In this document: positions 24,309-49,136 of the stretch, one piece after another
Layout of the letters: each line of letters starts with the position of its first letter
Position numbering within the stretch: the stretch's first letter is position 1
Source: Clostridiales bacterium UBA1742
Lineage (GTDB): Bacteria > Bacillota > Clostridia > TANB77 > CAG-508
Length of the DNA stretch: 64,000 bases
Direction: 5' to 3'
NCBI GenBank assembly: GCA_002314935.1
Contig: DCHW01000049.1
Span: 30 to 64,029, forward strand
Notes under the pieces: model-generated
Told to the model about the DNA's origin: nothing
The model's input: only the letters and a program-made list of their open reading frames with translations
Databases searched by the model: none
Program-made: the position numbers and the translations under genes

Positions 24309-24386
24309 ATTTTATCCTCCTAAATATAGCATATATATATCATAAAAGTGGTGTATTTGCAATAATTAAAAATTTTTAAAAAACTA

Positions 24387-24415: not shown

Positions 24416-24454
24416 AATTGTAACAAATAAATGTTCGTAAAAAGGGTGATAAAA

Positions 24455-28893: not shown

Positions 28894-29030
28894 ACTATAA
28901 AAAAGAAGACTTTAAAAGTTAAATTAGAAAAAAATATATAAATAGAGAAAAATAATTATTTGCAATTATGTGGAAAAGCAAATATATAAATTTAAATTAA
29001 ATGTAAAATAAGAAAGGAATTTTTGTTATT

Positions 29031-29777: not shown

Positions 29778-29793
29778 ATTATAGGAGTTTTAT

Positions 29794-30282: not shown

Positions 30283-30356
30283 GATGGAAATAGATGAAAA
30301 TATTGTAAAAAAATTTTTCTTATGATATAAGAAAAAACAAAAAGGAGATGTTTTTT

Positions 30357-31518: not shown

Positions 31519-31566
31519 AAAAATGATTTAAAAAATCATAAAAAAAATTGAAGGAATGATTTTATA

Positions 31567-32903: not shown

Positions 32904-32935
32904 AAAGTTATTTTATATAAGAGTGGGAGAAAAAT

Positions 32936-33244
32936 ATGAATAAAAAAATAAAATTAATTAAAACTATTCTTTTAGGTGTTATAAAAATTTTTGTAATACA
33001 AATATTTTTTTTGATGGCATACATAGATGATTATATGCCTCCTTTGCCACGTATTGAAAAAATATTAATATCACTAACTGGATTAGGTATTTCATTTTTG
33101 TTAGATATTATAGTAAATTATATTACCTATAGGGTTTTGAGAAAAAAAGACATTAATATAAAATTTATGAGTTTTTTAATAATAGATTTAATTATAACAG
33201 GTATATTTTTTGCTTTTTGTATAATTCTTATGAATATGAATTAG
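32936..33244 (+). CDS. small membrane protein
   Basis: 102 aa with three TM helices. RBS GGGAGAAAAA. Confidence 0.45.
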   Translation: MNKKIKLIKTILLGVIKIFVIQIFFLMAYIDDYMPPLPRIEKILISLTGLGISFLLDIIVNYITYRVLRKKDINIKFMSFLIIDLIITGIFFAFCIILMNMN

Positions 33245-33415
33245 AAAAAAAGAAATAAAAGAATATATGGGAGAAAGAATGAAAAATATTTTCCAAACAA
33301 TGAAATAAAATATATTGTATAAAAATTTAAATTTTATAAAAAAAATACTAGATTTTTTTAATATCTATATATAATAGTATTGAATTATAAAATAAATAAA
33401 AAAGGAGAAATAAAA

Positions 33416-36079: not shown

Positions 36080-36142
36080 TTATAATTATAGAAACCAACA
36101 TTCTTTCTTATAATATTTATTATTTATACAATTAGAAATTAA

Positions 36143-36382
36143 ATAGGTAATAAATTAATATACAAAAGTGAAACTCTTTGTAATAACTTTTATTTAGACG
36201 TAGAAATTATAGATGTTGATAAAGATCAAAATGAAGAATTGTTAATTAAAAGTATAGAATCTTCTCATACAAGTATTAATAATAATATTAATAATAAAAT
36301 TTTAAAAGTTCAAGATAACGAAACAAAGATTTATAGTGAGGAAGAATTTTATAAGTTAGACTTCAATGTACAAAACTTGTAG
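36143..36382 (+). pseudogene. 3' gene remnant without a start codon
   Basis: Open frame ...LDVEIIDVDKDQNEELLIKSIESSH...KLDFNVQNL* bounded upstream by a stop at 36140-36142. Followed by the cassette-type terminator at 36418. Confidence 0.3.
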
Positions 36383-36417
36383 AAAAAATTATATATTATT
36401 TCAAATATAGAAATATA

Positions 36418-36446
36418 AGATTAGATTGAAAATCTAGTCTTTTTTA
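36418..36446 (+). terminator. cassette-end terminator (agattag family)
   Basis: agattagat pairs with atctagtct plus a T-run. The same stem sequence recurs at 28321, 40714 and 44933. Confidence 0.55.
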
Positions 36447-36741
36447 TTTTAGGGTAAAATGCATGGCAGAATAGAGGAAGAAGATCATTTTTATATGAAG
36501 AGATAAAAGATAATTAATAGACTAAAAAATGTTAATTAATGAAATTTAAAAGTTTTAGATTTTATTTTTGTTCTTAACTCAAAAACCGAACATTTGTTAT
36601 TTGCAAAATTATTATATAAATTTATAAATAATTTTTATAATCTTATAATTTGATTTTATATTTATTAATTTTTAAGGCATTTTTAAAAATTAGGCATATA
36701 AGACCTGACCCATTAATGCAATCAAAGATTGCAAATGGGTA

Positions 36742-36868
36742 CCCCAAAAGCCACTTTTTGATATAGATGATAAATTTTATAAAAATTGTAGTTTTAATTA
36801 TAAAGAAATGATATAATATTAATAGTGTTTTATTGAGAGGTAATTAATATATCAATAGAAAAACAAAA
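36742..36868 (+). repeat. junction-repeat 3' end (copy A) plus a decayed stub of the 46062 antitoxin cassette
   Basis: ccccaaaagccactttttgatatagatgataaatttt matches the 3' end of the 138-bp repeat. 36774-36868 matches 45988-46083, with the RBS GGGAGG changed to GAGAGG and the ATG changed to ATA. Confidence 0.7.
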
Positions 36869-36925
36869 ATTCTTGAATATATTAATTTACAAATGATATA
36901 TTTAAAAATTGTATGGAGGTATTTT

Positions 36926-37540
36926 ATGAACGATGAATTAAAGAAATTAGTAGGAGATAATGAGAAAATTTTATATGAAGGTAAACCTAACAAAAAATGT
37001 TTTGTTTTTGAAAGCATTTTTAATCCATTATTACCATTTGCTGTACTATGGGCAATAATTGATTTTGGAATTTTGGGAGTATCTATTTTTTCATCTGATG
37101 TTCCAAATGAAATGTTATTTTTTATTATTCCATTTATGTTGTTACATTTAATGCCAGTATGGTTATATTTAGGTGGAATCCTTTTAACATTTAAACGTTA
37201 CAGAAATACATATTATATTGTAACAGACAATGCTATATATGTATCTGGAGGAACATTTAGTAAAACATTTAATTCAAAACCATTTGCAGAATTATCACAT
37301 ATAGATTTGCATAGAGGAATATTTGACCAAATGTTTAATGTTGGAGATATAATATCAACGTCAAGTCAATTTTCAAACAATAATACTAATGCTTCTATTT
37401 CAATAAATAGCATTTCTGACTATATGGCTGTTTATAATTTAGTAAAAAAATTGCAAAAAGATATATATACCGATGTTATGTACCCAAATGATAAAAGACC
37501 TAGTGAAAATCATGGGTATAATACAGAATATAAAGGTTAA
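36926..37540 (+). CDS. membrane protein with bacterial PH (YdbS/YdbT-like) domain
   Basis: ATG 36926 after TGGAGGT. Two TM helices followed by a YYIVTDNAIYVSGG-type bPH segment. Confidence 0.5.
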   Translation: MNDELKKLVGDNEKILYEGKPNKKCFVFESIFNPLLPFAVLWAIIDFGILGVSIFSSDVPNEMLFFIIPFMLLHLMPVWLYLGGILLTFKRYRNTYYIVTDNAIYVSGGTFSKTFNSKPFAELSHIDLHRGIFDQMFNVGDIISTSSQFSNNNTNASISINSISDYMAVYNLVKKLQKDIYTDVMYPNDKRPSENHGYNTEYKG

Positions 37541-37965
37541 ATATTATATTAAAGAAAAATAGTAAATAAAGTTATTTTAAATTTTTATAATATAAAATAA
37601 ATTAAAAATACAAAATTAGAATTTATATAATTTTAGTTTTGTATTTTTTTCTAAAATCGTTTTTATTTGATTTATTAAAATAAATTTTAAAGCTTTAAAT
37701 TTATTTAGTAATAATTATATATGAATTAAAATTTTATATATTTATATAAAGATATGCTGATTAATGATAGTCAGTAACAATTGCCAGTAAATTTTTTATT
37801 TCATAAAAAATTTCCAGACTGCGTTGAATTTCGAAAAATTAAAGTAATATAAGTTGTTGCATGAAGTATGATAAAAGAATATATAAAGCCTTATGTAAGA
37901 GGGCTTTCAAGCACCGAGAGATGACTCCAAAGAGGGGTTCTATTATTTTGCTCCTATTCATTTTT

Positions 37966-38103
37966 GCACAAAACTTTGATAGCAGACACCAGTATTTTAA
38001 AAGATATTCAAATTGTACAAGCCACTAATATCAATGCTTACAAAAATTCTATGTTGCTTTATTACCCCAAAAACCACTTTTTGATATAGATGATAAAAAT
38101 TTT
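37966..38103 (+). repeat. 138-bp cassette junction repeat, copy B
   Basis: gcacaaaactttgatagcagacaccag...ccccaaaaaccactttttgatatagatgataaaaatttt. Preceded by the variant-1 upstream module (about 37878-37965). Confidence 0.85.
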
Positions 38104-38207
38104 TTAAATTTGTAATGAAAATGTAATATTAAAATTATTGTAAAATATAAAAATTAAATATATAATATAGTAAATTTAATAAGTTAAATATTTAGAGGTA
38201 TTAAAAT

Positions 38208-39815
38208 ATGAAAACAAAAACAAGATTTTTAATTATTATGGTTATAACTTTAATTTTAATAATGATATTTAACCTAAAGGTTTATGCAGCTGATGAAGCG
38301 TTTACTTTAGAAGAAACTAATGTAGAGGTTAAGCTAAATGGTACAAAATGGCTATCATATAGTGGAGGAAGCGGAGCAATTACTTGGTCAAGTAGTGATA
38401 CAAGTGTAGCAACAGTAGAAAATGGAACCGTTAGTGGTAAAAAAATAGGAACAACTACTATTACAGCAACTAGAGGAGAAGAAACAGCAATTTGTAATGT
38501 AAATGTCGTGTATTATGATTTAACTATAGGTGGGAATGCTAGTAAAAATGTTTCGAGAGTAAATTTAGTATTAAACGAACATGATACTGAAAATTTATAT
38601 GCAAATGTCAAAGATGATAAATATGAAGCAGTAGAGAATGCTAACGTATCATGGTCAAGTAGTGATACAAGCATCGTAACAGTAGACAATAAAGGAACAA
38701 TAAAAGGATTAAAAGCTGGAACTACAACAGTTACTGCAACAGCAGCTGGAGTTACAGATTCTTGCGAAATAAAAGTAGTAAATGGACCAGCATTTACAAA
38801 CTTTTCTAATGCTAAATATGAATTACTTTTTGATACAGATGTAGACTTAAAAATAACAGGAGTTAAAGGAAATGATAAAAATAACTATTATTATATTATA
38901 ACTTCTGATAAAAATAAACCAACATTATGTAAGACAAATTATGGTGGATTAGATACAGAAACAACTGCCAATACAAAATATTTAATTACTAATACTGAAG
39001 AAGATTATATATATGCTAGGAATTTAGATGAATATGTTGAACGCAATCAAGATTTATATTTATGGATAATTGAAGATGTTAAACTTGAAGAATCATATTC
39101 GACAACTGAAGAAAATACCTATATATCACATTCTACAAAATTTGTAGTTGAAGGAGAAAAATTAAAAAGACCTGAATTACCACAATTAAATTTAATAATG
39201 AAATCATTATCAATATGGGGTGGCGTTGGTCGCAGTGGTGAAGAATCAAGTTATCTTCATTTTAGATTTCCATCAGGTACAGATAATAGAAAATTCAAAT
39301 TAAAAATAGGTAAAATTACAGATGATTCAATATTACAGAAAATACAAAATAACGATTATTCAGGTATAACAGCATTACTATCATATGCAAAAAATAATAT
39401 GGCAGTATATACAGCTGATTTAACAACAACAAGCCAAAACTACTATAGTAAAGAGACAGCATTATTTGATGGACTAAAAACATTAGAAAATAAAGCGTAT
39501 TATTACATATATGTCCAATTTGATGATGAAAATGGTAAATATTATCCAATTGAAGGTGTAACTTTAGGACAAGCTTGGATAAGCAGTTCAAGTGCATATT
39601 GGGATTTATGGGCATATACTTCTGACAATTTTGAATGGAATAATTTATCTAGTACACCTATAGAAACAGGTGAAACAGAGGAACCAGATGATACAAAAGC
39701 CCCTGATAAATTACCTAAAGCTGGTACTGTATATAGTATAGTTTGTGTAATATTAGCTTTAGTTGGTGGCAGTATATTTGTATATCGTAAATATAATAAT
39801 TTAAGAGGAATTTAA
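38208..39815 (+). CDS. cell-wall-anchored surface protein with Big_2 domains (LPxTG-type sorting signal)
   Basis: Signal peptide. Two Big_2 repeats (ITWSSSDTSVATVENGTVSGKKIGTTTITAT). C-terminal LPKAG plus hydrophobic helix plus RKYNNLRG tail. Confidence 0.75.
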   Translation: MKTKTRFLIIMVITLILIMIFNLKVYAADEAFTLEETNVEVKLNGTKWLSYSGGSGAITWSSSDTSVATVENGTVSGKKIGTTTITATRGEETAICNVNVVYYDLTIGGNASKNVSRVNLVLNEHDTENLYANVKDDKYEAVENANVSWSSSDTSIVTVDNKGTIKGLKAGTTTVTATAAGVTDSCEIKVVNGPAFTNFSNAKYELLFDTDVDLKITGVKGNDKNNYYYIITSDKNKPTLCKTNYGGLDTETTANTKYLITNTEEDYIYARNLDEYVERNQDLYLWIIEDVKLEESYSTTEENTYISHSTKFVVEGEKLKRPELPQLNLIMKSLSIWGGVGRSGEESSYLHFRFPSGTDNRKFKLKIGKITDDSILQKIQNNDYSGITALLSYAKNNMAVYTADLTTTSQNYYSKETALFDGLKTLENKAYYYIYVQFDDENGKYYPIEGVTLGQAWISSSSAYWDLWAYTSDNFEWNNLSSTPIETGETEEPDDTKAPDKLPKAGTVYSIVCVILALVGGSIFVYRKYNNLRGI

Positions 39816-39819
39816 AAAT

Positions 39820-39856
39820 AAGAGGAATGTTGTAAAATATATTCCTCTTATTTTTT
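39820..39856 (+). terminator. rho-independent terminator
   Basis: aagaggaat (39820-39828) pairs with attcctctt (39841-49), followed by a T-run. Confidence 0.65.
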
Positions 39857-39926
39857 ATAGGAAGATTGATTTTGAATATAGAGGAATATGCAAAGTAAAA
39901 TAATTATATAATAAGCAAGCTCTTTA

Positions 39927-40064
39927 TGCACAAAACTTTGATAGCAGACACCAGTATTTTTAAAGATATTCACATTGTACAAGCCACTAATATAAATACT
40001 TACAAAAATTCCATATTGCTTTATTACCCCAAAAGCCACTTTTAGATATATATGATAAAAATTT
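39927..40064 (+). repeat. 138-bp cassette junction repeat, copy C
   Basis: Same length as and collinear with copies B, E and F. Lacks the upstream module. Confidence 0.85.
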
Positions 40065-40141
40065 TATAATATTATATAAAACTATTAACGCACCAGAAAA
40101 ATATATATGTGGATATTTTAAATAAATGTTTTTCAAAATAA

Positions 40142-40170
40142 TGGAAATCATATAAAATATATGGTATACT
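40142..40170 (+). promoter_or_regulatory. candidate extended -10 promoter of the TA cassette
   Basis: TGgTATACT at 40162-40170, with a weak -35 TGGAAA at 40142-40147. An identical element lies upstream of the second copy (about 43685). Confidence 0.35.
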
Positions 40171-40202
40171 AATTATAATAATTTTAAAGGAGATTTTATA
40201 TT

Positions 40203-40379
40203 ATGAGTGATAAACAATTAATTTTAAATACAGTTCAAAGTATTGAAGATACAAAAAGTTATGAAGAAATTCTATATACTTTATTTATGCAATTAGAAAT
40301 TCAAAAGGGTATTACTGATATGGAAAATGGTAATGTAAAAACAAGTGATGAATTAAAGGAGATTATTAATAAATGGTAA
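40203..40379 (+). CDS. type II antitoxin (ParD/RelB-like), 58 aa
   Basis: ATG after AAAGGAG. Its stop overlaps the toxin start (ATGGTAA). Below the track cutoff. Confidence 0.6.
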   Translation: MSDKQLILNTVQSIEDTKSYEEILYTLFMQLEIQKGITDMENGNVKTSDELKEIINKW

Positions 40380-40684
40380 GATGGACTGATAATTCAATTT
40401 CTAATATTACAGATTTTATTGATTCTGCTAAAGAAGGAACAGAAAATACTGCAAAAGCATATATGAATAAATTAATAGACTATGTAGATATACTAAATAC
40501 AATGCCAGAATTGGGCAAGGTAGTTGAAAATTATATATTTAAATATAAAATTAGACAGATTGTTTATAAAAGCCACAAAGTTATATATCATAAAAAAGAT
40601 AATGATATAATTATTTTAACTGTTTTACATTCAAAAATGGATTACAATGCAGCATTAAACCGATTAAAGAAAATTATAAAATAA
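40373..40684 (+). CDS. type II toxin, RelE/ParE family
   Basis: 103 aa. IRQIVYKSHKVIYHKKDNDIIILTVLHSKMD is a typical ParE/RelE C-terminal fold signature. Confidence 0.7.
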   Translation: MVRWTDNSISNITDFIDSAKEGTENTAKAYMNKLIDYVDILNTMPELGKVVENYIFKYKIRQIVYKSHKVIYHKKDNDIIILTVLHSKMDYNAALNRLKKIIK

Positions 40685-40713
40685 GAAAGCAATAATAAAA
40701 GAATAATCCATTA

Positions 40714-40750
40714 AAAGATTAGGTTGAAATATATCTAATCTTTTATTTTA
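40714..40750 (+). terminator. cassette-end terminator (agattag family)
   Basis: aaagattag (40714-22) pairs with ctaatcttt (40735-43) plus a T-rich tail. Confidence 0.55.
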
Positions 40751-40954
40751 TGCCAAAATTAAGCAGAGTAGGGGAAAGAGCTCTATTTTCAACGGATTAA
40801 TAAAAAAATATAAAATCTATAATTAAAAAGTTAAAGTTCTTGTAAAATTATTTTTAAAAAATATAATGAAAATTTGAAAATAAAAAGATGAATTTATTAA
40901 TATGAATTTTGTGATTTTTTATATTTAGAATTTGAATAATTTTTGAAAAAATTT

Positions 40955-41091
40955 TGTAGGGGCGATTTTAATCGCCCGAAATTTAAAACGAATAATAAAA
41001 TTGTTATTAATAATATAAAATAACCAGCTTATAAAAGTCTGAAATATATGTAGAATAGGATATTACACGGGCGATTAAAATCGCCCCTACA
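40955..41091. repeat. MITE-like element with perfect 24-bp terminal inverted repeats
   Basis: tgtaggggcgattttaatcgcccg (40955-40978) and its exact reverse complement (41068-41091) flank 89 bp. Each arm is itself a hairpin (gggcgat/atcgccc). Confidence 0.7.
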
Positions 41092-41098
41092 TCTTTTT

Positions 41099-41125
41099 GT
41101 ACAAAACTTTGATAGGGGGACACAA
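41099..41125 (+). repeat. junction repeat, diverged copy D (core only)
   Basis: gtacaaaactttgatag matches the repeat core. The downstream about 120 bp is a different sequence of similar length. Confidence 0.55.
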
Positions 41126-41330
41126 GGCTTTTTTTGACTTTTCTGATAAAGAAACATTAATTTATCAGTATTTTGCGGCTACGAAAAGGCTTCCTTGTGA
41201 CCAATAATGAAAATGCTTTTTGACATAAATATAAAGTAATAAATGTTATATATATATATTAGAATATTTTGTTGAATAATAATATTTTATATGATATATT
41301 TAATAAAAATATAATTTTGGAGGATAAATA

Positions 41331-42668
41331 ATGAAAAATAAATTTATTGAAATTATAACAACTATATTAATTTGTTTATTGATACTATTATTAGATTACT
41401 TATTTTATTGGTATAAATTACCTGTTTTGCTATTAATTTTTCCACTAATAATTGCATCCTCTTACTTAATATCATTATTTATTTTCAAAAAAAGCAATAT
41501 TGAAAAAAGAAAAGAAATAGGAAAATTAACAAGACTTATAATTGTGATAGTTGCATGTATTGGAACTTTACCGTTTATTTATGATTTTACTTTGAATGAC
41601 TATACTTTTTTTGGAATTCAAGATATTCTTAGACCACTTTATTTTTTAACATATATTTTCTTGTCAATTACAATGTTAGTTTTGTCTTTTTTGTTTTATT
41701 TTTTATATAAAAATAAAACAAAAAAATTAAAAAATAATGAAATACCATTTGATATTGATGAACAAAGAGAAAAGAATGTTATAAAGACAATAAGCATATA
41801 TTTATTAATATTAATAATTTGTATTACGTTATATTTATGTAAATTACCTGGACTATTGTTTGTTTTTCCAACAATTTTAGCAATTATTTATTTAATATCA
41901 TTATTAATTTTTAGGGAAACAAATATAGCCCAGAGGGAAAAAGTTGGATCTTTAACAAGACCTCTAGCGGTAGTATTCGCATCATGTATAACTTGTTTTC
42001 TTTCTTTAGCTCTGGATATTAATTGGTTAAATTCAGATAAACACATAAAATTATTAGAGATTGATATAGCAAGTTCTATTGTATGCTATTTTTCATATAA
42101 AAATAAAACAAAAAAATTAAAAAATAATGAAATGTCACATGATAAAAAAGTAATTATTGAAAAGAAAAGTGATGAAATACTATTTGATAAAAAAATTAGT
42201 GTCGAAAAGGAAAAAAATAAAATAAAAATTGAAAATAATAGGTATAAAGGAAAAAAGAATAAATATATAATTAGTGATTTTTTATTTATAATTATATCAG
42301 CACTAATAATTTTATATTTTATTTTCATTATTGTTCCAATTGGTGAACAGGGAAATTTTTTCAATGAAGAAATCAATCCAAGAGTTGATTTGGTTACAAA
42401 ATATAAAATGATGGTAAACCCAATTTTTTGGGGATATTTAATTTATTGTAACCTAAAAATTTGTAATGTTAATAAATATATGAAATTTTTTGTATACCCT
42501 ATAACTGCAATAACATTTTTTATATCATTAATTTTTTTCTTATCAACATATGGAGGAAGTGCAATATGGTTGCTATTCTTTATTTTACCTATTGCGCCGT
42601 TAATTTTTTATTTAAATATTAAATTAATAAAAAAAATGAAAAACATATTAAAAATAAATAATACATAA
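41331..42668 (+). CDS. polytopic membrane protein with internal duplication
   Basis: 445 aa. Two copies of KLP.LL..FP.I.A..YLISL.IF...NI..R...G.LTR and of YKNKTKKLKNNE. The 38-nt DNA repeat at about 41703 and about 42092 is near-identical. Confidence 0.55.
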   Translation: MKNKFIEIITTILICLLILLLDYLFYWYKLPVLLLIFPLIIASSYLISLFIFKKSNIEKRKEIGKLTRLIIVIVACIGTLPFIYDFTLNDYTFFGIQDILRPLYFLTYIFLSITMLVLSFLFYFLYKNKTKKLKNNEIPFDIDEQREKNVIKTISIYLLILIICITLYLCKLPGLLFVFPTILAIIYLISLLIFRETNIAQREKVGSLTRPLAVVFASCITCFLSLALDINWLNSDKHIKLLEIDIASSIVCYFSYKNKTKKLKNNEMSHDKKVIIEKKSDEILFDKKISVEKEKNKIKIENNRYKGKKNKYIISDFLFIIISALIILYFIFIIVPIGEQGNFFNEEINPRVDLVTKYKMMVNPIFWGYLIYCNLKICNVNKYMKFFVYPITAITFFISLIFFLSTYGGSAIWLLFFILPIAPLIFYLNIKLIKKMKNILKINNT

Positions 42669-43450
42669 TAGTTAATTATACAGGTGAAAAGATGAATTAG
42701 GTTTAAACATAGATTTATATAAAAAATATAATAACTCTTGTGAAATTTTAAAAAAACAATAGAGTAGGGGAAAGAACCCTATTTTCAACAGGTTAATAAA
42801 AAATATAAAATCTATAATTATTTTGTATAATTTTATAAATTTTTTTATAATCATACAATTTAATTTTATAATTATTCATCTCAAAATCGTTTTTTAAGCG
42901 TTTTAAAATATAAATCCATAAAGTTATTATTTAATTACTTAAAATCGATTTTAAAGCTATATTTTTAGAATGATAATTTATATATTAGTTAAAATTTCAT
43001 ATAGTTTTATATAGATATGCTGATTATGTGCAATTTTCAGTATATCTGTAAAATGCCTAAAAATAGCCAAAAAAACGACGCACGAGAATCGATTTTAAGC
43101 CGCTTTTAAAAATTAGCCATATAGTTTGTTATCTAAAATATGAGGCTATTTTAAGGCGAGGCTCTAAAATCGATTTTAAGGCGTTTTTTTATTTAAGTAA
43201 TATAAGTTGTTGTTTAAAATATAAGAATTAATATATGAATATAAATATTATGAATAAAAATTATAATACTGAACAATAAAAATAAAAAATAGCCACATAC
43301 TGAAATATACTGAAAATGATTAAAATGCATATATAATGGCTTAATAATAACTATATAATAGATACTAAAGGAAGCTCATACACTAGTAGTATCAAGACTT
43401 GAAGGGGATACCTGAAAGAGGTATTCTTTATTTTATCCCTACACCTTTTT

Positions 43451-43588
43451 GCACAAAACTTTGATAGCAGACACCAGTATTTTTAAAGATATTCAAATTG
43501 TACAAGCCACTAATATCAATGCTTACAAAAATTCTATGTTGCTTTATTACCCCAAAAGCCACTTTTGGATATAGATGATAAAAATTTT
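43451..43588 (+). repeat. 138-bp cassette junction repeat, copy E
   Basis: Preceded by the variant-2 upstream module. 43168-43464 matches 48647-48943 over 297 bp. Confidence 0.85.
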
Positions 43589-43725
43589 ATAATATTATAT
43601 AAAGCTATTGACACACAAGAAAAATATATATGTGGATATTTTAAATAAATGTTTTTCAAAATAATGGAAATCATATAAAATATATGTTATACTAATTATA
43701 ATAATTTTAAAGGAGATTTTATAAT

Positions 43726-43902
43726 ATGAGTGATAAACAATTAATTTTAAATACTGTTCAAAGTATTGAAGATACAAAAAGTTATGAAGAAATTCTATAT
43801 ACATTATTTATGCAATTAGAAATTCAAAAGGGTATTACAGATATGGAAAATGGTAATGTAAAAACAAGTGAGGAATTAAAGGAGATTATTAATAAATGGT
43901 AA
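43726..43902 (+). CDS. type II antitoxin (duplicate of 40203..40379)
   Basis: Same length and near-identical sequence to the first copy. Overlaps the toxin start. Confidence 0.6.
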   Translation: MSDKQLILNTVQSIEDTKSYEEILYTLFMQLEIQKGITDMENGNVKTSEELKEIINKW

Positions 43903-44207
43903 GATGGACTGATAATTCAATTTCTAATATTACAGATTTTATAGATTCTTCTAAAGAAGGAACAGAAAATACAGCAAAAGCATATATGAATAAATTAATA
44001 GACTATGTAGATATACTAAATACAATGCCAGAATTGGGCAAAGTAGTTGAAAATAATATATTTAAATATGAAATTAGACAGATTGTTTATAAAAGCCACA
44101 AAGTTATATATCATAAAAAAGATAATGATATAATTATTTTAACTGTTTTACATTCAAAAATGGATTACAATGCAGCATTAAAAAGATTAAAGAATATTAT
44201 AAAATAA
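43896..44207 (+). CDS. type II toxin, RelE/ParE family (duplicate of 40373..40684)
   Basis: 103 aa. Five substitutions relative to the first copy (A18S, Y54N, K58E, N96K, K100N). Confidence 0.7.
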   Translation: MVRWTDNSISNITDFIDSSKEGTENTAKAYMNKLIDYVDILNTMPELGKVVENNIFKYEIRQIVYKSHKVIYHKKDNDIIILTVLHSKMDYNAALKRLKNIIK

Positions 44208-44297
44208 GAAAACAATATATATACTTTATTCGCTGTATGTCTATACTATTATAAAAAATTGCATGACAAATAGTAAGTTATAGAGGAGATTATAAAT

Positions 44298-44915
44298 ATG
44301 ATTAAAAGATATTTTAGTGGATTAAAATTTGGATTATTATTGCAGATAGCAGTTGGACCTATGTGTTTAATGGTATTTAATACAGCAAAGAATGTTGGAT
44401 TTTTAGTCGCTTTATCATTAGTATTAGCAATTGCATTAGTAGATGCATTTTATATAACATTAGCAAGTATAGGAGTAAGCAAACTATTAGAAAAAGAAAA
44501 GATTAAAAAGATATTTAAGATAATAGGTTCTATTGTACTTATGGTATTTGGAATTAATATTATATTAAATGTATTTGGAACAAATATTATTCCAGGATTA
44601 AACTTAAGACCGACATCAGCTAATATTTTTATGCAAGGCTTAATATTAACATTATCAAATCCAATAACAATAGTATTTTGGGGAAGTGTTTTAACTACTA
44701 AAATTATAGATGATAAATTAAAAAAGAAAGAATTAGTAATATTTTCAGTAGGCTTAGTATCTGCAACATTACTATTTTTAACAGCAGTTGCAATATTAGG
44801 AACAATACTATCAAGCTTTATACCTAATAATATTTCAAATATACTAAATGTTATTGTAGGAGCATTAATAATATTCTTTGGAATTAAGATGTTAATAAAA
44901 AAAGATAAAAACTAA
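44298..44915 (+). CDS. LysE/RhtB family amino-acid exporter
   Basis: 205 aa with six TM helices. LysE-type N-terminal GLLLQIAVGPMCLMVF and central NPITIVFWGSV segments. Confidence 0.65.
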   Translation: MIKRYFSGLKFGLLLQIAVGPMCLMVFNTAKNVGFLVALSLVLAIALVDAFYITLASIGVSKLLEKEKIKKIFKIIGSIVLMVFGINIILNVFGTNIIPGLNLRPTSANIFMQGLILTLSNPITIVFWGSVLTTKIIDDKLKKKELVIFSVGLVSATLLFLTAVAILGTILSSFIPNNISNILNVIVGALIIFFGIKMLIKKDKN

Positions 44916-44932
44916 AAATTACAATTTATTTT

Positions 44933-44962
44933 AAAGATTAGATTTGATAGCTAGTCTTTTTT
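44933..44962 (+). terminator. cassette-end terminator (agattag family)
   Basis: aaagattag (44933-41) pairs with ctagtcttt (44951-59) plus a T-run. Confidence 0.55.
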
Positions 44963-45786
44963 AATTTTTGATAAAAATGGCGAAGTAGGGGGAAGAGCTC
45001 TATTTTCAAGAATTATAACTTTTTATTAAATTTTATATTTAGAAAAAAAGAAGAACTAGGTAGTAAAATATTTTGTGCAATGTTATAAAATTATTTTCAG
45101 AAAAAAATTTTTGAATTAAAAATAATAATTAATAAAATATTTCTTAAAATTTAATTTTTGAATTTTAAATTTTGTTTGGTTAAAAATTCTTAAACCGAAC
45201 ATTTGATTATTATAAATTAATTTAAAAATTTTAATTATGATTTTAGATTTATAATTATATTTATAAAGTCTGAAAATCAATTTTAAGCAATTAAAATTAT
45301 TAACTAATTAAATTATTCATTTAAAACTTTATAAATTGATTTTGAAGCTTTTAAACTTATAATATGTAATTTGAATTTATAGATTCTAATTAGATTTATA
45401 CAATTATTACTATATATAAAAATCTCTGAAATTAGCTAAAATAATGGCTTACGAGAATCGATTTTAAGCCGTTTTTAAAAAATTAGGCATATAGTTTGTT
45501 GCGTAGCGTAAGCGAAGCCTGAAACATTTTTGAGCATTTTGTGATAAAAATGTTGCTGGTCAGATTAATATAAGAAATTTTAAAATTATGCCAGTAAATA
45601 ATTTCCAGAGTTCGCAATTAAAAATTGCTCACCAGAATCGATTTTAAGACGTTTAAATATTAAAATAATATAAGTTGTTGCATTAAATATAATAACAGAA
45701 TATATAAAGCCTTATATAAGAGGGCTTTCAAGCACCGAGAGAGGACTCCAAAGAGGGGTTCTATTATTTTGCTCCTATTCCTTTTT

Positions 45787-45924
45787 GCACAAAACTTTGA
45801 TAGCAGACACCAGTATTTTTAAAGATAGTCAAATTGTACAAGTCACTAATATCAGTACTTACAGGAACTTTGTATCGTTTCATTACCCCAAAAGCCACTT
45901 TTAGATATATATGATAAAAATTTT
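45787..45924 (+). repeat. 138-bp cassette junction repeat, copy F (most diverged full-length copy)
   Basis: Same 138-bp length as B, C and E, with substitutions only. Preceded by the variant-1 module (about 45698-45786). Confidence 0.85.
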
Positions 45925-46061
45925 ATAATATTATATAAAGCTATTGACACACAAGAAAAATATATCTGTGGATATTTTTTTGAGTAATTTTATAAAAATT
46001 GTAGTTTTAATTATAAAGAAATGATATAATATTAATAGTGTTTTATTGGGAGGTAATTAAT

Positions 46062-46304
46062 ATGTCAATAGAAAAACAAAAAATATTAAGTGAAATAGAA
46101 ACATTACCAGAAGAACTTTCAAAACAAGTTATTGATTTTATTGAATATTTGAAATTTTCACAAATATCTAATGAAGCTCCAGATAGTGTTACAATAAAAA
46201 GTAAAAAAGATTTAAAAGAAAAAATCCAAAAAGGAATTGATGATATAGAAGCTGGTAGAGTTTATACGGTAGAAGAAGTATTTGAAAAACTGGATAATAT
46301 ATAA
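46062..46304 (+). CDS. type II antitoxin (DUF2281/RelB-like)
   Basis: ATG 46062 after GGGAGG. ILSEIETLPEELSKQVIDFIEYLKF N-terminal segment. 80 aa. Confidence 0.6.
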   Translation: MSIEKQKILSEIETLPEELSKQVIDFIEYLKFSQISNEAPDSVTIKSKKDLKEKIQKGIDDIEAGRVYTVEEVFEKLDNI

Positions 46305-46323
46305 ATCCTTAGGAGTTGATAGA

Positions 46324-46647
46324 ATGAAGAAATATAAAGTTACAGTTTCTGAAACTGCTAAGCAGGATTTGGAAAATATCATTTCATATCTTAGATATGA
46401 TTTATCAGAAGATATTATTGCAGATAAATACAAGATTTTATTTAAGCAAAAATTAATGACATTAGAAGATATTGCTGAAAGTATGCCTATTATAAATGAA
46501 GAACTAATTGGACATAAAAATATAAGAAAAATAAATGCTAAAAACTATATTATTTTCTATAAGATAGATGAACATACAAATACAGCTTACATTATCAGAG
46601 TTGGTCATGCATTTATGGATTGGGAAAGATATTTGAAAGATATATAA
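46324..46647 (+). CDS. type II toxin, RelE/ParE family
   Basis: ATG 46324 after TAGGAG. 107 aa. IRKINAKNYIIFYKIDEHTNTAYIIRVGH signature. Confidence 0.65.
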   Translation: MKKYKVTVSETAKQDLENIISYLRYDLSEDIIADKYKILFKQKLMTLEDIAESMPIINEELIGHKNIRKINAKNYIIFYKIDEHTNTAYIIRVGHAFMDWERYLKDI

Positions 46648-47090
46648 TCATAGTAATATTAGAAAATAATAGAAACTATATGGAAGATATGATATACTAC
46701 AAAAAGAAAATAATTGGAGGATGATATATGTTTGATGTAAATGAATATTTGAAAAATTTTTATAGTTGTGTATTATATACATAATGTGGACTGACAAACA
46801 AATATAAAAAAACACCACATTTAGCTTTGCCGAGCTGTGTGGTGTTTCTTGAATTTATTTAGGTAACACACATTGTCTGTGGCTACTTACTTTCTATCTT
46901 TATTATATACACTTTTTTATATTTGTCAAATTTTTTGAAAAAACTCATAGCATACACAATAATAATATTGCAATTTACATAAAGATATGATAATATATAG
47001 CAGCAAAAATTTATTAGCAAAATTCCTTATTTTTGCAACTGGAGGTCAGACAGTTACTATAAAAATATATTTTAAAGGAGTGAAATTTAA

Positions 47091-47546
47091 ATGAAGAAAT
47101 TTAAAGATGTATCATTCAACAAATCACGGTTCATTTCTATATTTATTGGTATATTAATTTTTTTATTAGCTATAAGTATTTTGTGTATTAAGCTTAAATA
47201 TTCTTTTTATGTATCAATTCCCTTAGGAATAATAGTTGGAGCAGTAACATATTCAATTATTTTTTCTATTTTTGATGGACCTACTAAGAATGTATACAGA
47301 AAAAGATTAAGAGTCAGCTTAGTATATCAAAATTCAGCTACTGAAGTTAAGTGCAAATCAATAGAATTAAATCCATACAATACGAGATATGATGCGTTTG
47401 GCAATTGCAGATTTTACGCAATGTTGTTGACAGACAACAAGGTCTGGATTTCTATATGTGCTCAGAAAGAAAATGGAAACTTTATTCCACGAGCATATGA
47501 AATTGTAGATTTATCTAAGTTTTATCAATATTTTTCTTTCATTTAA
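47091..47546 (+). CDS. membrane protein, hypothetical; contains an in-frame CGG
   Basis: ATG after AAAGGAG. Two TM helices. The CGG at 47127-47129 must be read in frame (KS-R-FISIF), because a +1 shift there hits a stop after 10 codons. Confidence 0.5.
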   Translation: MKKFKDVSFNKSRFISIFIGILIFLLAISILCIKLKYSFYVSIPLGIIVGAVTYSIIFSIFDGPTKNVYRKRLRVSLVYQNSATEVKCKSIELNPYNTRYDAFGNCRFYAMLLTDNKVWISICAQKENGNFIPRAYEIVDLSKFYQYFSFI

Positions 47547-47552
47547 GCTAAA

Positions 47553-47577
47553 GAGAGTCAGAAATGACTCTTTTTTA
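47553..47577 (+). terminator. rho-independent terminator
   Basis: agagtca (47554-60) pairs with tgactct (47565-71) plus T6. Confidence 0.65.
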
Positions 47578-47718
47578 GTTTTGTGATGTTATTTACTTGA
47601 AATTGAAGATAATAGTCCAGTTATGGATATAAATATATTACCAGAAGATTTAAGAGAAAAAGTAATAACAAGATATAAAGAAAACATTTACGAATATTTA
47701 AAAAAAGGTGAAAAATAA

Positions 47719-48012
47719 ATGAAAATATATATTGTAAGACATGGACAAGTTGATTTAATATTAAGATCAATAGAATTATATAGCTATAATCTTGAATTTA
47801 TGCTTGATGCAGATGAGTCAAATGAAGAAAAGAAGCGAGAAAAACTTGCAAAATTAAAATATACCTATGAGCAAATATTATCATGTCTTGCTGACCAAGT
47901 TAATGGAAAGGCTGAAGAATATGAAAAGAGGAGAACAACAGGTAGAAACATGCTTGGAGATAACATTATAGATATAATACCATCTAAAAAAGAAAAATTT
48001 CAAGTTGGTTAA
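47719..48012 (+). pseudogene. chimeric remnant: histidine-phosphatase N-terminus (MKIYIVRHGQ) fused to unrelated sequence
   Basis: Only the first about 12 codons resemble the RHG phosphatase motif. The remaining 85 codons are low-complexity and charged. Confidence 0.35.
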
Positions 48013-48929
48013 AAGCAGTAGAATAGGGGGGAACAGAGGAATTTTTATAGTTTATAATTAATTAATAAAATTTTTTAAAAATTATATTAAAAAATAATTT
48101 TTAAGTTGAAAAATAAAAATTATAAAATTTAAAATATAAAATAAATAATAAAACTTTAAAATTTAATTTTGAAAATTTTTTAAATTTTTTATATAATAAT
48201 TATTATTTTTATATTTTAAACCTCTCAAAATCGTTTTTAAGGCATTTTTATAATTAACTAATAAAAAATTACTCATTTGAATTATTATTATAATACTATA
48301 ACTTATATAAAATTTTAATTTATCAATACTTTTATAAATTAATTATAATTAAATTAGTAATAATTACTATTTTTGATGAATTATATAAATTAATGTAATT
48401 ATTGCAGCAACTTGGTTTTAGCTCAAAAATTGCCAAAATAATGACGCACGAGAATCGATTTTAAGCCGTTTTTAAAAATTAGCCATATAGTTTGTTGCGT
48501 AGCGTAAGCGAAGCCTGAAACATTTTTGAGCATTTTGCGATAAAAATGTTGCTGGTCAGATTAATATAAGAAATTTTATATAAAAATTTATACAGATATA
48601 AAATTATATTAATCAGTTATAAAAATTGATTTAAATGGATTGTCAGAATCGTTTTTAAGGCGTTTTTTTATTTAAGTAATATAAGTTGTTGTTTAAAATA
48701 TAAGATTTAATATATGAATATAAATATTATGAATAAAAATTATAATACTGAACAATATAAATAAAAAATAGCCACATACTGAAATATACTGAAAATTATT
48801 AAAATGCATATATAATAGCTTAATAATAACTATATAATAGATGCTAAAGAAAGCTCATACGCTAGTAGTATCAAGACTTGAAGGGGATACCTGAAAGGGG
48901 TATTCTTTATTTTATCCCTACACCTTTTT

Positions 48930-48951
48930 GCACAAAACTTTGATTTTGTGC
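48930..48951. other. perfect 8-6-8 palindrome closing the cassette array (candidate recombinase core site)
   Basis: GCACAAAA-CTTTGA-TTTTGTGC. The left arm plus spacer equal the first 14 nt of every junction repeat. The right arm starts a 17-mer (ttttgtgcaatgttata) also present at 45071-45087. Confidence 0.6.
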
Positions 48952-49136
48952 AATGTTATATATTCCTTTTTTGATACTTTTCCATATCTACTTCTGCCTC
49001 TCATCTACTATCCTTTGACCTGTTAAAGTGAATTCAATTGTAATTTACTATTTAATTAATTATTTATTTTATGTTTTATTTTTCAAATTAGATTTCGCCA
49101 TGATTTTTTATTTTAAAAATTATTTTTTTTAAGTAA

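Follow-up and report, generated by a model that had tools for sequence, protein, structure and literature searches.

The window analysed here, a 64 kb stretch of contig DCHW01000049.1 from Clostridiales bacterium UBA1742, contains an array of small gene units that all lie on the + strand. Six such units (36.7-48.9 kb) are separated by repeat-built spacers that were found nowhere else in the window. They encode toxin-antitoxin (TA) pairs as well as membrane and surface proteins, and two tyrosine recombinase genes are located upstream of the array (Table 1).

Table 1. Features of the window, with coordinates counted from its first nucleotide
Coordinates	Strand	Feature	Content
20250-21131	+	Canonical XerD gene	293 aa; next to spoIIM
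24796-25776	-	XerC-like tyrosine recombinase gene	326 aa; divergent from the array; candidate cognate recombinase of the site
25969-36079	+	Variable block between the recombinase gene and the first spacer	GC content 0.20-0.30; Fic, acetyltransferase, RCC1-repeat, amidohydrolase/abhydrolase fusion and other genes
36080-36892	+	Spacer S0, a degraded copy of the native arm	47-aa stub ORF; agattag terminator (about 36418-36447); weak b module (36468); 'ccgaacatttg'; c/d fragment; strong hairpin (36708-36744); copy of the TA3 promoter plus antitoxin start with ATG changed to ATA (36768-36874); core missing
36893-37979	+	Unit 1	bPH_2 membrane protein gene (36893-37540); spacer S1; core 1 (37963-37979)
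37980-39941	+	Unit 2	Right-arm module P'-1 (TAGCAGACACC... to TACCCCAAAAACCAC plus promoter-like TTGATA); Big_2 surface protein gene with a C-terminal LPKAG/TM tail (38208-39815); terminator; almost no spacer; core 2 (39925-39941, TATGCACAAAACTTTGA)
39942-41112	+	Unit 3	P'-1; antitoxin + ParE (40203-40684); agattag terminator; b module (40768-40792); spacer S3 with the inverted GTAGGGGCGATT.../...AATCGCCCCTAC hairpins; core 3 (41096-41112, TTTGTACAAAACTTTGA)
41113-43464	+	Unit 4	Alternative right-arm module P'-2 (TAGGGGGACACAAGG... hairpin); gene of a 445-aa TM protein with an internal duplication (41331-42668); b (42764-42788); spacer S4 (c, cd x2, 298-nt block 43168-43465); core 4 (43448-43464)
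43465-45800	+	Unit 5	P'-1; second antitoxin + ParE copy, 95% identical to the first (43726-44207); LysE (44298-44915); terminator; b (44985-45009); internal right-arm-like motif ATTTTGTGCAATGTTATA (45070-45097); spacer S5; core 5 (45784-45800)
45801-48926	+	Unit 6	P'-1; third, DUF2281-like antitoxin + ParE pair (46062-46647); 151-aa TM protein (47091-47546); chimeric 97-aa ORF (47719-48012); spacer S8; no integrase gene
48927-48954	+	Complete 11-6-11 palindrome	TTTGCACAAAA-CTTTGA-TTTTGTGCAAT; candidate dif or attachment site
48955-49060	+	Right flank (B')	Partly conserved in relatives

Genes, spacers and recombinases of the locus

The observation made in the sequence-only reading, namely short and functionally unrelated gene units pointing the same way and separated by spacers of shared modules, was confirmed. 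All credible ORFs between 36080 and 48960 are on the + strand and match the genes it listed, and all of the repeat modules that it described exist and exceed chance. TTTTGCACAAAACTTTGATAG occurs 6 times against 0.00 expected, TACCCCAAAAGCCACTTTT 5 times against 0.03, AAAATCGATTTTAAGSCG 8 times against 0.00, and GTAGGGGAAAGAGCTCTATTTTCAA 3 times against 0.00. Every copy is on the + strand and lies only between 36.7 and 49.0 kb of the window. The long spacers S1, S4, S5, and S8 are homologous to each other over 0.4-0.9 kb at about 70%, with patches of 94-97%. Each unit had been proposed to bring its own promoter-like region and terminator; terminator-like hairpins are enriched (10 against 2.1 expected), whereas promoter-like hits are barely enriched (155 against 127) in this DNA of 20-25% GC. 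The hairpin in spacer S0 has a folding z-score of -5.2. One spacer module, cd (GAATCGATTTTAAGSCGTTTT), is generic in phage-like contigs of this clade, and this terminator-like hairpin was found in 27 viral contigs.

Two corrections to the earlier description are required. First, the array had been described as lacking a visible integrase, which does not hold for the window, since it contains two xer genes. The XerD protein scores 347.1 bits with the NCBIfam XerD equivalog model (cut-off of 329.6), and its gene is syntenic in relatives. The best NCBIfam hits of the XerC-like protein are XerC at 230 bits, which is below the cut-off of 335, and archaeal XerA at 200 bits, whereas the integron-integrase model gives only 108.8 bits against a cut-off of 265. 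Its best PDB hit is XerA (5hxy). Orthologs of 78-88% identity are present in many Clostridia MAGs and lie next to the yneA-like LysM gene in every context examined. The variable block that follows the gene has no nucleotide similarity to relatives and no core or cd hit, whereas the other side of xerC is syntenic at 75-85%. Second, it had gone unnoticed that the most conserved repeat is one half of a recombinase-type palindrome, which is complete at the distal end of the array.

The last ORF of the array joins the N terminus MKIYIVRHGQ to a homolog of a 93-aa protein (p93) that is the partner of the integrase in related elements. A tblastn search with the 93-aa proteins hit 47746-47895 with E = 8e-07 to 2e-05, and the only integrase hits in the window were the host xer genes. 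Phage-like contigs carry an int gene, encoding a Xer-like protein 34-39% identical to the host XerC-like protein, followed by p93, the arm, and the core; this order is seen in L133, L146, and L036/L044 (handles starting with L denote the contigs compared). Modules of this kind occur in at least 7 IMG/VR contigs.

The repeat core and its counterparts in related genomes

The key repeat is a core of 17-21 nt, TTTGCACAAAACTTTGA, which is present six times and always on the + strand. Only the last copy is a full and perfect 11-6-11 palindrome, and it sits exactly where gene orientation and GC skew flip (48.9-49.0 kb). As single-stranded DNA it folds with z = -5.85. Of its 22 arm positions, 15 match E. 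coli dif, placing it in the top 10 of 127,946 positions in the window, and 12 match that of B. subtilis, so that the similarity to canonical dif is modest. The flanks left and right of the cores assort independently, with breakpoints within 5 nt to the left and 1-3 nt to the right of TTGCACAAAACTTTGA. For example, cores 43449 and 48928 are 95-100% identical on the left and 32-40% on the right, whereas cores 37964 and 43449 are 39% identical on the left and 95-98% on the right. This mosaic is the footprint of site-specific recombination.

Related MAGs carry the same palindrome, the same spacer of about 0.8 kb, and a partly conserved right flank next to the ortholog of the XerC-like gene; in five relative configurations, this gene lies 0.9-8 kb from the palindrome. 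In the relative L031, whose XerC-like protein is 85% identical, one spacer plus TTGCGCAAAA-CTTACA-TTTTGTGCAA plus the right flank lies 0.9 kb from xerC and contains no cassettes. It is found at the strand and skew switch of that contig, directly after a PGA_cap gene 0.2 kb downstream of rho. The first about 20 nt of the right flank are almost identical between the window and L031, followed by CCATATC and CT.CTG.CTCTC motifs over about 60 nt, and the first about 10 nt (GTTATRTATT) are also shared with the species represented by L183-L190. However, L032 has no site within 10 kb of xerC.

Strain-level variation was observed in one species, among contigs with an identical XerC-like protein (P0101). 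L183, L186, and L190 show the empty state, consisting of rho, flank, site, an 860-nt spacer, and xerC. In the occupied state, an insert of 6.1 kb (L185) or 7 kb (L188, L189) without a called integrase is placed exactly at the site, and the identical chromosomal flank gttatgtattgataaataataagcag reappears after a degenerate left arm + TGA + TTTTGTGCAAT. One insert encodes a rolling-circle Rep-type protein. In L178/L179, a 5.7 kb element with Zot-like and replication-protein genes and no integrase is bracketed by two copies of the site. Further cassette-type junctions (left arm + centre + TA...) were found in L180, which has a Fic gene between two cores that is 89% identical to the L178 Fic gene on the other side of the spacer, in L182, which has an AAA_14/DUF4143 gene after a core, and in L003, with ToxN-like and AlbA_2-like genes.

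Both conditions that had been named in advance as refuting the earlier reading, an invariant locus and a generic repeat, were examined, and neither refuted it. The locus is hypervariable in relatives and between strains, with breakpoints at the core, although only one strain of the window's own organism is in the collections, so that this variation does not concern these particular units. The core is not a generic genome-wide repeat, since an exact scan of 185,579 species representatives found only two loci and a metagenome scan found only chance hits.

Proposed origin of the array and alternative readings

The interpretation of the locus as integron-like in the sequence-only reading is partly supported. 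Discrete gene units have accumulated in one orientation at a recombination site, but the locus is not an integron. The neighbouring recombinase scores best as XerC/XerA, the sites are an 11-6-11 double-strand-type palindrome rather than attC hairpins, and the units carry their own promoter-like regions. The same-strand orientation, which had been offered as an integron hallmark, is also what leading-strand bias gives, and the 10 kb upstream of the array is all + strand too.

We propose, with moderate confidence, that the locus is a tandem accumulation of small integrative elements at a Xer/dif-type site of an uncultured low-GC Clostridia lineage. In the native configuration, seen empty in relatives, a XerC-like recombinase gene is followed by an AT-rich non-coding arm of about 0.8 kb, corresponding to the spacer, and then by the palindrome TTGCRCAAAA-N6-TTTTGYGCAA. 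In the window and in two relatives, this sits where the two gene-orientation domains converge, which is the likely replication terminus. However, the terminus call rests on gene orientation in sequence stretches of 21-64 kb, and GC skew is not independent evidence, since it tracks the coding strand here (- strand genes at 13-16 and 23-26 kb have zero or negative skew). In this model, incoming circles carry a mimic of the site, which for the cassette-type units has a good left arm and central region (TTTGCACAAAACTTTGA) but an unrelated right arm (TAGCAGACACC and similar). Recombination at the site would insert the circle, with the asymmetric 6-bp centre fixing its orientation. The proximal junction would become a crippled hybrid (good left arm, centre, foreign right arm) that locks the unit in, and a complete palindrome would be regenerated at the distal end, ready for the next insertion. 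Six rounds, or fewer followed by internal duplication and deletion, would give the present array.

The sites with their mosaic flanks, the empty and occupied states in relatives, the linkage to the xer gene, and the existence of both integrase-less and integrase-bearing elements using the same site are read directly from the sequences. In contrast, it is inferred from sequence alone that recombination takes place and that the host XerC-like/XerD proteins catalyse it, that the palindrome is the chromosome dimer resolution site, that the small units move as units rather than being deletion remnants of larger elements, and that insertion was stepwise at the distal end. The proposal agrees with published IMEX sites, in that conservation of one arm plus the centre with divergence of the other arm is the pattern reported for TLC-phi attP and for difGGI (PMC5357621). 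Several findings nevertheless weigh against it. A perfect palindrome is unusual for a XerC/XerD heterodimer site, and a canonical dif elsewhere in the genome cannot be excluded. Homologs of the TA cassette in other genomes are not at such sites and the P'-1 module was not found in viral contigs, so that horizontal movement of these exact cassettes is unproven. Some differences in gene content are not at cores, since LysE follows the TA2 stop codon directly and an AraC unit lies inside the spacer in L184, and the internal right-arm-like motif at 45070 is not explained by the proposal.

A possible but considerably less likely alternative is accretion driven by element-encoded integrases alone. 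In this view, the site is the attB of a family of temperate phage-like elements encoding a Xer-like integrase plus p93, the units are deletion remnants in which cargo genes near the att ends survived, host Xer plays no part, and the site is not dif. The modules of int, p93, arm, and core in viral contigs are in line with this reading, as is the p93 remnant fused to the start of another gene at the end of unit 6, which shows an internal deletion that removed the integrase; one contig, L064, carries a GH25 lysin. However, elements with no called integrase occupy the same site in several genomes, the site is genetically linked to a conserved core xerC-like gene in at least five genomic configurations, units 2-5 show no phage gene remnants, and the empty site with its long arm is conserved next to core genes.

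It appears unlikely that the XerC-like recombinase with its adjacent site and 0.8 kb arm forms a specialised gene-capture system that evolved from Xer, with chromosome dimer resolution being handled by a canonical XerC/dif elsewhere. The recombinase gene is divergent from an adjacent site at which cassettes accumulate in one orientation, its product falls below the XerC equivalog cut-off whereas XerD passes its own, the cargo of TA, Fic, and Abi genes is typical of integron-like arrays, and integron integrases are themselves reported to derive from Xer-like ancestors (PMC4792948). However, the site sits at the orientation switch in three genomes, which a capture platform would not need, and the recombinase evolves like a core gene and is named XerC by PGAP. 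Genes typical of filamentous phages (Zot-like, rolling-circle Rep) lie in the integrase-less elements at the site, as in dif-integrating IMEX (PMC5357621). No canonical dif was seen in the 64 kb window, although this is weak evidence.

Local duplication and homologous recombination only, with a spacer duplicated by unequal crossing-over, genes arriving by unrelated events, and the core being merely its best-conserved part, such as a regulatory or terminator element, is very unlikely: although the TA pair with 280 nt of its upstream region is duplicated at 95% identity, two 298-nt spacer blocks are 97% identical, and the cd module is generic, the independent assortment of flanks with breakpoints exactly at a core of 16-21 nt is not what homologous exchange inside repeats of 0.4-1 kb would give, insertions in other genomes are bounded precisely by the site with the chromosomal flank restored, and the core has the geometry of a recombinase site.

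Relation to described systems

Sedentary chromosomal integrons and CALINs resemble the locus in that a tyrosine recombinase gene is divergent from a site where unidirectional, TA-rich arrays of small unrelated cassettes accumulate, with repeats bounding each cassette. Here, however, there is no IntI and there are no attC-type single-strand hairpin sites, the cassettes carry their own promoter-like regions, and new units appear to enter at the end distal to the recombinase gene. In CIME/ICE arrays, such as ICESt1/ICESt3 at fda, integrase-less remnants flanked by att cores also sit in direct orientation beside sites used by integrase-bearing relatives, but the units of the present array are much smaller and the site has Xer/dif geometry and position.

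The pdif modules of Acinetobacter plasmids are likewise discrete small gene modules bounded by repeated Xer-type sites (10.1101/2022.12.17.520857, 10.1101/2024.04.09.588662). These modules include toxin-antitoxin pairs. They are located on plasmids with sites in alternating orientation, whereas the present array is chromosomal, all sites are direct, and only the terminal one is complete. An atypical dif genetically linked to its recombinase gene is also found in XerS/difSL of streptococci and XerL/dif of Legionella (PMC2731167, PMC1914069), and in Legionella a dif was recognised through a mobile element, LME-1, that mimics it and integrates there (PMC9765430). In the present case a canonical XerD is also present 4 kb away, so that the system need not be single-recombinase.

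The closest described kind is tandem IMEX accumulation at dif, as in Vibrio cholerae TLC-phi/RS1/CTX-phi, the gonococcal genetic island GGI, and EludIMEX-1. There, elements integrate at a terminus-located 11-6-11 site, the site mimic of the element keeps one arm plus the central region and diverges in the other arm, and elements stack head-to-tail with a functional site regenerated at one end; many lack an integrase, and elements with genes typical of filamentous phages are among the users (PMC5357621). What differs here is that the hosts are Clostridia instead of Proteobacteria, that the site is a near-perfect palindrome with modest similarity to canonical dif, that it is preceded by a conserved 0.8 kb non-coding arm that the units also carry, that the units are promoter-bearing cassettes of one or two genes, and that some users of the site encode their own Xer-like integrase plus a 93-aa partner. 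The locus is best read as a tandem array of IMEX-type elements at a non-canonical dif-like site of this Clostridia lineage, at which small gene units have piled up head-to-tail, so that it works like an integron but is not one.

Gene units, repeats and the palindromic core

The window is about 25% GC, and between the end of an amidohydrolase/abhydrolase fusion gene and position 48960 every credible ORF is on the + strand. In order, these encode a bPH_2 membrane protein, a Big_2 surface protein with an LPKAG tail, a small antitoxin + ParE pair, a 445-aa internally duplicated TM protein, a 95%-identical second copy of the TA pair followed by LysE, a third ParE pair with a DUF2281-like antitoxin, a 151-aa TM protein, and a 97-aa chimeric ORF. 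The gene list of the sequence-only reading is thus correct, and its observation of same-strand gene units separated by shared repeats holds. The repeat modules are real, far above chance, all on the + strand, and confined to 36.7-49.0 kb of the 64 kb. The long spacers are homologous to one another along most of their length at about 70% identity, with patches of 94-97%, whereas a permissive blastn of the spacers against the window gave mostly low-complexity AT-rich noise outside the array. A search of the whole window against Rfam at gathering thresholds gave no hit, so that the repeats are not a curated RNA family. The region upstream of the bPH gene was found to be a 94%-identical copy of the promoter, RBS, and first codons of the third antitoxin gene, with the ATG mutated to ATA, a remnant showing that gene replacement has occurred downstream of a shared promoter module. 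The duplication within the 445-aa TM protein gene comprises 92 nt at 78% identity, encoding the repeated motif YKNKTKKLKNNE.

The most conserved repeat is TTTGCACAAAACTTTGA, which occurs six times. In the last copy it continues as TTTTGTGCAAT, making a perfect 11-6-11 palindrome, TTTGCACAAAA-CTTTGA-TTTTGTGCAAT, which is the geometry of a simple tyrosine-recombinase (Xer/dif-type) site. The five internal copies keep the left arm and the asymmetric 6-bp center but continue into unrelated right arms, namely, TAGCAGACACC four times and TAGGGGGACAC once. A pairwise analysis of the six junctions showed that the sequence classes to the left and to the right of the core assort independently, with similarity breaking within 5 nt to the left and 1-3 nt to the right of TTGCACAAAACTTTGA. 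For example, the junctions at 43449 and 48928 are 95-100% identical on the left but 32-40% on the right, whereas those at 37964 and 43449 are 39% identical on the left and 95-98% on the right. This mosaic is the footprint expected of site-specific exchange at the core, and homologous exchange inside 0.4-1 kb repeats would not give it.

Coordinates of features in the window and in related contigs
Feature	Sequence	Position	Strand	Remark
XerD gene	window	20250-21131		canonical
LexA-box-like motifs	window	24360-24440		CGAAAAAATGTTCG and AAATGTTCG, preceding the yneA-like LysM gene
yneA-like LysM gene	window	24431-24751		convergent with the XerC-like gene
XerC-like gene	window	24796-25776	-	326 aa
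Variable block	window	25.9-36.1 kb		10 kb
Amidohydrolase/abhydrolase fusion gene	window	ends 36079		
Copy of promoter, RBS, and first codons of the third antitoxin gene	window	36768-36874		compared with 45981-46087
Cores	window	37963, 39925, 41096, 43448, 45784, 48927	+	last copy a full palindrome
Promoter-like modules	window	40043, 43566, 45902, and elsewhere		TTGATA/TAGATA-N16-18-TATAAT
Module b (GTAGGGG...)	window	40768-40792, 42764-42788, 44985-45009	+	
Internal duplication, 445-aa TM protein gene	window	41685-41776 and 42075-42166	+	
cd module	window	43083-43131, 45452-45501, 48449-48497, and weaker copies		
Right-arm-like motif	window	45070-45097		inside spacer S5; weak copy at 42820
Right-arm-like motif	L178	about 7113	-	inside the spacer
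Chimeric ORF	window	47719-48012	+	p93 homology at 47746-47895
Switch of gene orientation and GC skew	window	48.9-49.0 kb		
p93 gene	L133	7877-8158		
p93 gene	L064	623-904	-	
Element without a called integrase	L178	840-6381		
Element without a called integrase	L185	3001-8863		equivalents in L188 and L189
AraC/GyrI-like gene plus 100-aa ORF	L184, L187, L188	8538-9759 (L188)		inside the spacer
ToxN/AbiQ-like gene region	L003	1-610		

Short inverted repeats bound the long spacers, since module b is the reverse complement of the motif just upstream of the cores (CCCTAC / CTCCTAT), in the 10-20 nt before each core. Across genomes, an outer stem that encloses the pre-core hairpin and T-run changes sequence but stays complementary (GGGGAT/ATCCC, GGGT/ACCC, AGTA/TACT, GAGG/CCTC, and GTAG/CTAC). 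A copy of the right arm plus the first flank bases, ATTTTGTGCAATGTTATA, lies inside spacers of the window and of the related contig L178 shortly after module b, and also reads as an extended -10 promoter (TGTTATAAA). Because of this motif, the possibility that the spacers are MITE-like elements bounded by a right arm and a left arm was considered, but it was dismissed since no left arm plus center abuts the motif.

Both gene orientation and GC skew flip at the terminal palindrome, where about 49 kb of mostly + strand genes meet 15 kb of - strand genes. As skew follows the coding strand here, it was rejected as independent evidence, but the convergence of two long co-oriented gene runs suggests a replication terminus, an inference that rests on 21-64 kb stretches of sequence. 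Contrary to the sequence-only reading, which saw no integrase, the window encodes two tyrosine recombinases, and tblastn revealed no further homolog in it. One is a canonical XerD (347 bits against a cut-off of 329.6), and the other is a XerC-like protein that scores 230 bits on XerC, below the cut-off, and 200 bits on archaeal XerA. Orthologs of the latter, with 78-88% identity, were found in many uncultured "Clostridia bacterium" MAGs, in every context examined next to a yneA-like LysM gene, so that the gene behaves as a core gene. The two LexA-box-like motifs preceding the yneA-like gene of the window suggest an SOS-regulated neighbor of the recombinase.

The site in relatives and in integrase-bearing elements

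The side of xerC that carries yneA, guaA, IMPDH, xerD, and spoIIM is syntenic at 75-85% nucleotide identity in the related contigs L178 and L182, whereas L180 shares only the guaA-yneA-xerC part. The other side of xerC shares nothing with the window except spacer modules. The gene on the right-hand flank of the array, a SpoIIE-like phosphatase, has no close orthologs (58% identity at best) and was of no use for synteny. In the related contig L031, the site is empty: a single spacer of about 770 nt with the same modules follows directly after a PGA_cap gene that lies 0.2 kb downstream of rho, and ends in TTGCGCAAAA-CTTACA-TTTTGTGCAA. The right flank that follows is partly conserved with the window, the first about 20 nt being almost identical, followed by CCATATC and CT.CTG.CTCTC motifs over about 60 nt. 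This site is 0.9 kb from xerC, lies at the strand and skew switch of the contig, and is not accompanied by cassettes.

Strain-level variation was observed in one species that has been sampled many times (22 contigs read, with an identical XerC-like protein, P0101). The empty state, consisting of rho, flank, site, an 860-nt spacer, and a divergent xerC, is found in L183, L186, and L190. Other strains carry either a 6.1 kb insert encoding a rolling-circle Rep-type protein (REP_ORF2-G2P; L185) or a 7 kb insert (L188 and L189), both inserted exactly at the site and neither with a called integrase. In these strains the proximal junction keeps the full palindrome, whereas the distal junction is a degenerate left arm + TGA + TTTTGTGCAAT, followed by the identical chromosomal flank gttatgtattgataaataataagcag. 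The spacer-site-flank segment has the opposite orientation relative to rho and xerC in L031 and L183, which suggests an inversion around the palindromic site. In L178/L179, a 5.7 kb element with a Zot-like protein, a replication protein (phrog_702), and no integrase is bracketed by two copies of the site. L185, L188, and L189 each contain a reverse-oriented DUF2726 gene, and another DUF2726 gene lies just outside the L178 element. These small (5.7-7 kb) elements look like filamentous (inovirus-type) prophages, a class suggested only by their gene content.

Cassette-type junctions like those of the window were found in three further contigs. L180 has a Fic gene between two cores, which is 89% identical to the Fic gene of L178 that sits on the other side of the spacer. 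L182 has an AAA_14/DUF4143 gene after a core, and L003, from an unrelated Clostridium MAG, has two units carrying a ToxN-like and an AlbA_2-like gene. The ToxN/AbiQ-like gene of L003 is preceded by short direct repeats that resemble a ToxI-type antitoxin RNA, and its 3' end is cut by a cd module. However, not all differences in gene content lie at cores. LysE follows directly after the stop codon of the second TA pair, and an AraC/GyrI-like regulator gene plus a 100-aa ORF is inserted inside the spacer in L184, L187, and L188. Furthermore, homologs of the ParE toxin elsewhere (60-76% identical) sit in other contexts without the core, such as next to a diversity-generating retroelement or in a chromosomal Fic/PPDK neighborhood. 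The closest foreign homologs of the ParE pair (71% identical; contigs L191-L194) lie directly downstream of such a retroelement (bAvd + reverse transcriptase).

The sequence-only reading had named two outcomes that would speak against it, namely, invariance of the locus and repeats of a generic genome-wide type, and neither was found. The locus is variable, with breakpoints at the repeat, as judged from relatives and from a single strain of the window's own organism. All copies of the core, of module b, of the right-arm module P', and of the spacer module c are confined to 36.7-49.0 kb on one strand of the window, the core with TAG was found in only 2 of 185,579 species genomes, and a scan of metagenome contigs for the 19-mer core returned 24 single hits, nearly all in coding DNA of unrelated marine organisms, that is, chance matches. 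The repeats therefore do not behave like dispersed REP/BOX/MITE-like elements. The exception is the cd module (ACGACGCACGAGAATCGATTTTAAGSCGTTTTT, then about 10 nt, then CATATAGTTTGTTG), which is widespread in phage-like contigs of low-GC Clostridia (27 IMG/VR contigs, L154-L177), in many contexts that include gene ends and sites next to strong promoters. In some copies, for example in L155, its 5' part pairs perfectly with TAAGCCG, so that it looks like a terminator-like hairpin with a conserved loop, and not every module is specific to this system.

Elements with their own integrase use the same site. Low-GC IMG/VR contigs carry the core with the same upstream arm (cd module, hairpin, T-run, and CCTAC motif), next to a Xer-like integrase, 34-39% identical to the host XerC-like protein, and a conserved 93-aa partner protein, here termed p93. 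Two arrangements occur: int, p93, arm, and core in that order (L133, L146, and L036/L044), and int and p93 converging on a full palindrome (L064) or, in the same way, on the arm (L160 and L175). A 16-mer scan of viral sequences was dominated by a conserved coding 16-mer of unrelated phages, and only its low-GC hits were informative. In contrast, the P'-1 variant of the right-arm module and the TACCCCAAAAGCCAC motif are absent from IMG/VR, and a phage database contained no DNA match to the arm plus site and only integrase hits of 35% identity or less. The p93 protein (motif QVDLILRSLEFYSYTY...LRISLVRDTYxQI; also in L176) is always encoded immediately after the Xer-like integrase of the elements that use this site, has no NCBIfam hit, and is a candidate directionality factor or Xer-activation factor. 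The last ORF of the array is a fusion, of which the start, MKIYIVRHGQ, resembles by inspection the N terminus of a histidine-phosphatase-type protein, whereas the rest is a homolog of p93 (tblastn E = 8e-07 to 2e-05). It is followed by a spacer and the terminal site. Unit 6 is therefore at least partly a deletion derivative of such an element.

Relation to IMEX and integrons

The pattern of one conserved arm plus center with a divergent other arm, seen at the five internal junctions and in mirror arrangement in the elements with Rep or Zot-like genes, is that described for integrative mobile elements exploiting Xer (IMEX), such as TLC-phi attP and the gonococcal difGGI. IMEX integrate at dif, can stack in tandem, and are stabilized by crippled hybrid sites (PMC5357621). 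As in IMEX, no integrase or remnant of one was found between 25.9 and 49 kb, and none was called or detected in the L178, L185, L188, and L189 elements, although the integrase-bearing elements mentioned share the site. An atypical dif genetically linked to its recombinase gene is known for XerS/difSL, and an atypical dif was discovered in Legionella through an element that mimics it (PMC2731167, PMC1914069, PMC9765430). The palindrome has the 11-6-11 geometry of dif, lies at the gene-orientation switch in the window, L031, and L183, and is linked to xerC-like in five configurations, all seen on contigs of limited length. Its arms match E. coli dif at 15/22 positions, which is in the top 10 of 127,946 window positions, but B. 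subtilis dif at only 12/22, and a perfect palindrome is unusual for a heterodimeric XerC/XerD site. Searches of the window with the Bacillus-type dif consensus and the ATAA-N6-TTATGT pattern gave nothing above chance.

The window is therefore read as a native xerC-arm-dif configuration that has been split by the 10 kb variable block, after which a degraded native arm (S0) follows. In this view, six cassette-type units were then inserted one after another at the site, each leaving a locked hybrid junction while the functional palindrome was regenerated at the distal end. The asymmetric center would explain the single orientation of the cores, and leading-strand bias much of the gene orientation. 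The sequences themselves document the sites, the mosaic flanks, the empty and occupied states, the linkage to xerC, and the existence of both integrase-less and integrase-bearing users of the site, whereas catalysis by the host XerC-like/XerD proteins, identity of the palindrome with the dimer-resolution site, mobility of the small units as units, and the order of insertion are inferences.

The integron interpretation of the sequence-only reading is partly supported, since the locus works like an integron, with a recombinase gene next to a site and a one-way array of small, often TA-type cassettes bounded by repeats. All six units and six cores are on the + strand with the recombinase gene on the - strand upstream, although 10 kb of other + strand genes intervene. 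However, no IntI is present, as the XerC-like protein scores only 108.8 bits on the NCBIfam integron-integrase model TIGR02249 (cut-off 265) and 72 bits on PRK15417 (cut-off 435), with XerC and XerA as the best hits. The cassettes are not promoterless either, as each unit has its own conserved promoter-like module and its own terminator, identified as consensus matches only. As for attC, by inspection alone no attC-type site was seen, the conserved junction being half of an 11-6-11 duplex-type site with no GTTRRRY, and the flanking hairpin modules fold weakly (z = -1.96, +0.42, and -1.94). The locus fails the defining integron features that could be tested or inspected.

The locus fits best with tandem IMEX accumulation at a dif-like site and differs from described cases in its Clostridia host, its palindromic, noncanonical site with a conserved 0.8 kb arm, its cassette-sized units, and the sharing of the site with integrase-bearing phage-like elements. 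An alternative that is unlikely but not excluded is an independent, Xer-derived integron analogue in Clostridia, in which a conserved recombinase gene physically coupled to a palindromic site and a 0.8 kb accessory arm would serve as a dedicated gene-capture platform. Promoter-bearing mini-cassettes (TA, Fic, Abi, surface, and membrane proteins) would be inserted, locked by crippled hybrid sites, and exchanged between genomes, with phages and integrase-less elements with filamentous-phage-type genes competing for the same site. Such a platform might be distinct from dif or might double as the unrecognized, noncanonical dif of the lineage.

Implications for Clostridia

If the IMEX reading is correct, these arrays are, as far as could be found, the first of IMEX style outside Proteobacteria, and being made of one- or two-gene cassettes they bridge the concepts of IMEX, pdif modules, and integrons. 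It also replaces a vague integron-like idea with a defined 28-bp site and two defined proteins that are amenable to experiment. The palindrome would be the likely chromosome dimer resolution site, or at least the main Xer-type attachment site, of a widespread group of uncultured gut and rumen-type Clostridia, and it differs from the Bacillus-type dif used for prediction in Firmicutes; Kono et al. could not predict dif in some Clostridium genomes (PMC3025954). Short-read assemblies break at these repeats, with contigs ending at the core, at the duplicated TA pair, or at the TACCCC repeat, or 100-250 nt upstream of xerC in another species (L002, L030, L001, L029, L199-L201, and L206), and such arrays are therefore likely to be under-represented in MAGs. 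The locus would represent a hotspot where integrase-less elements carrying genes typical of filamentous phages, temperate phage-like elements with Xer-like integrases, and TA, Fic, and Abi cargo meet, which bears on MAG assembly and on the formation of defense islands.
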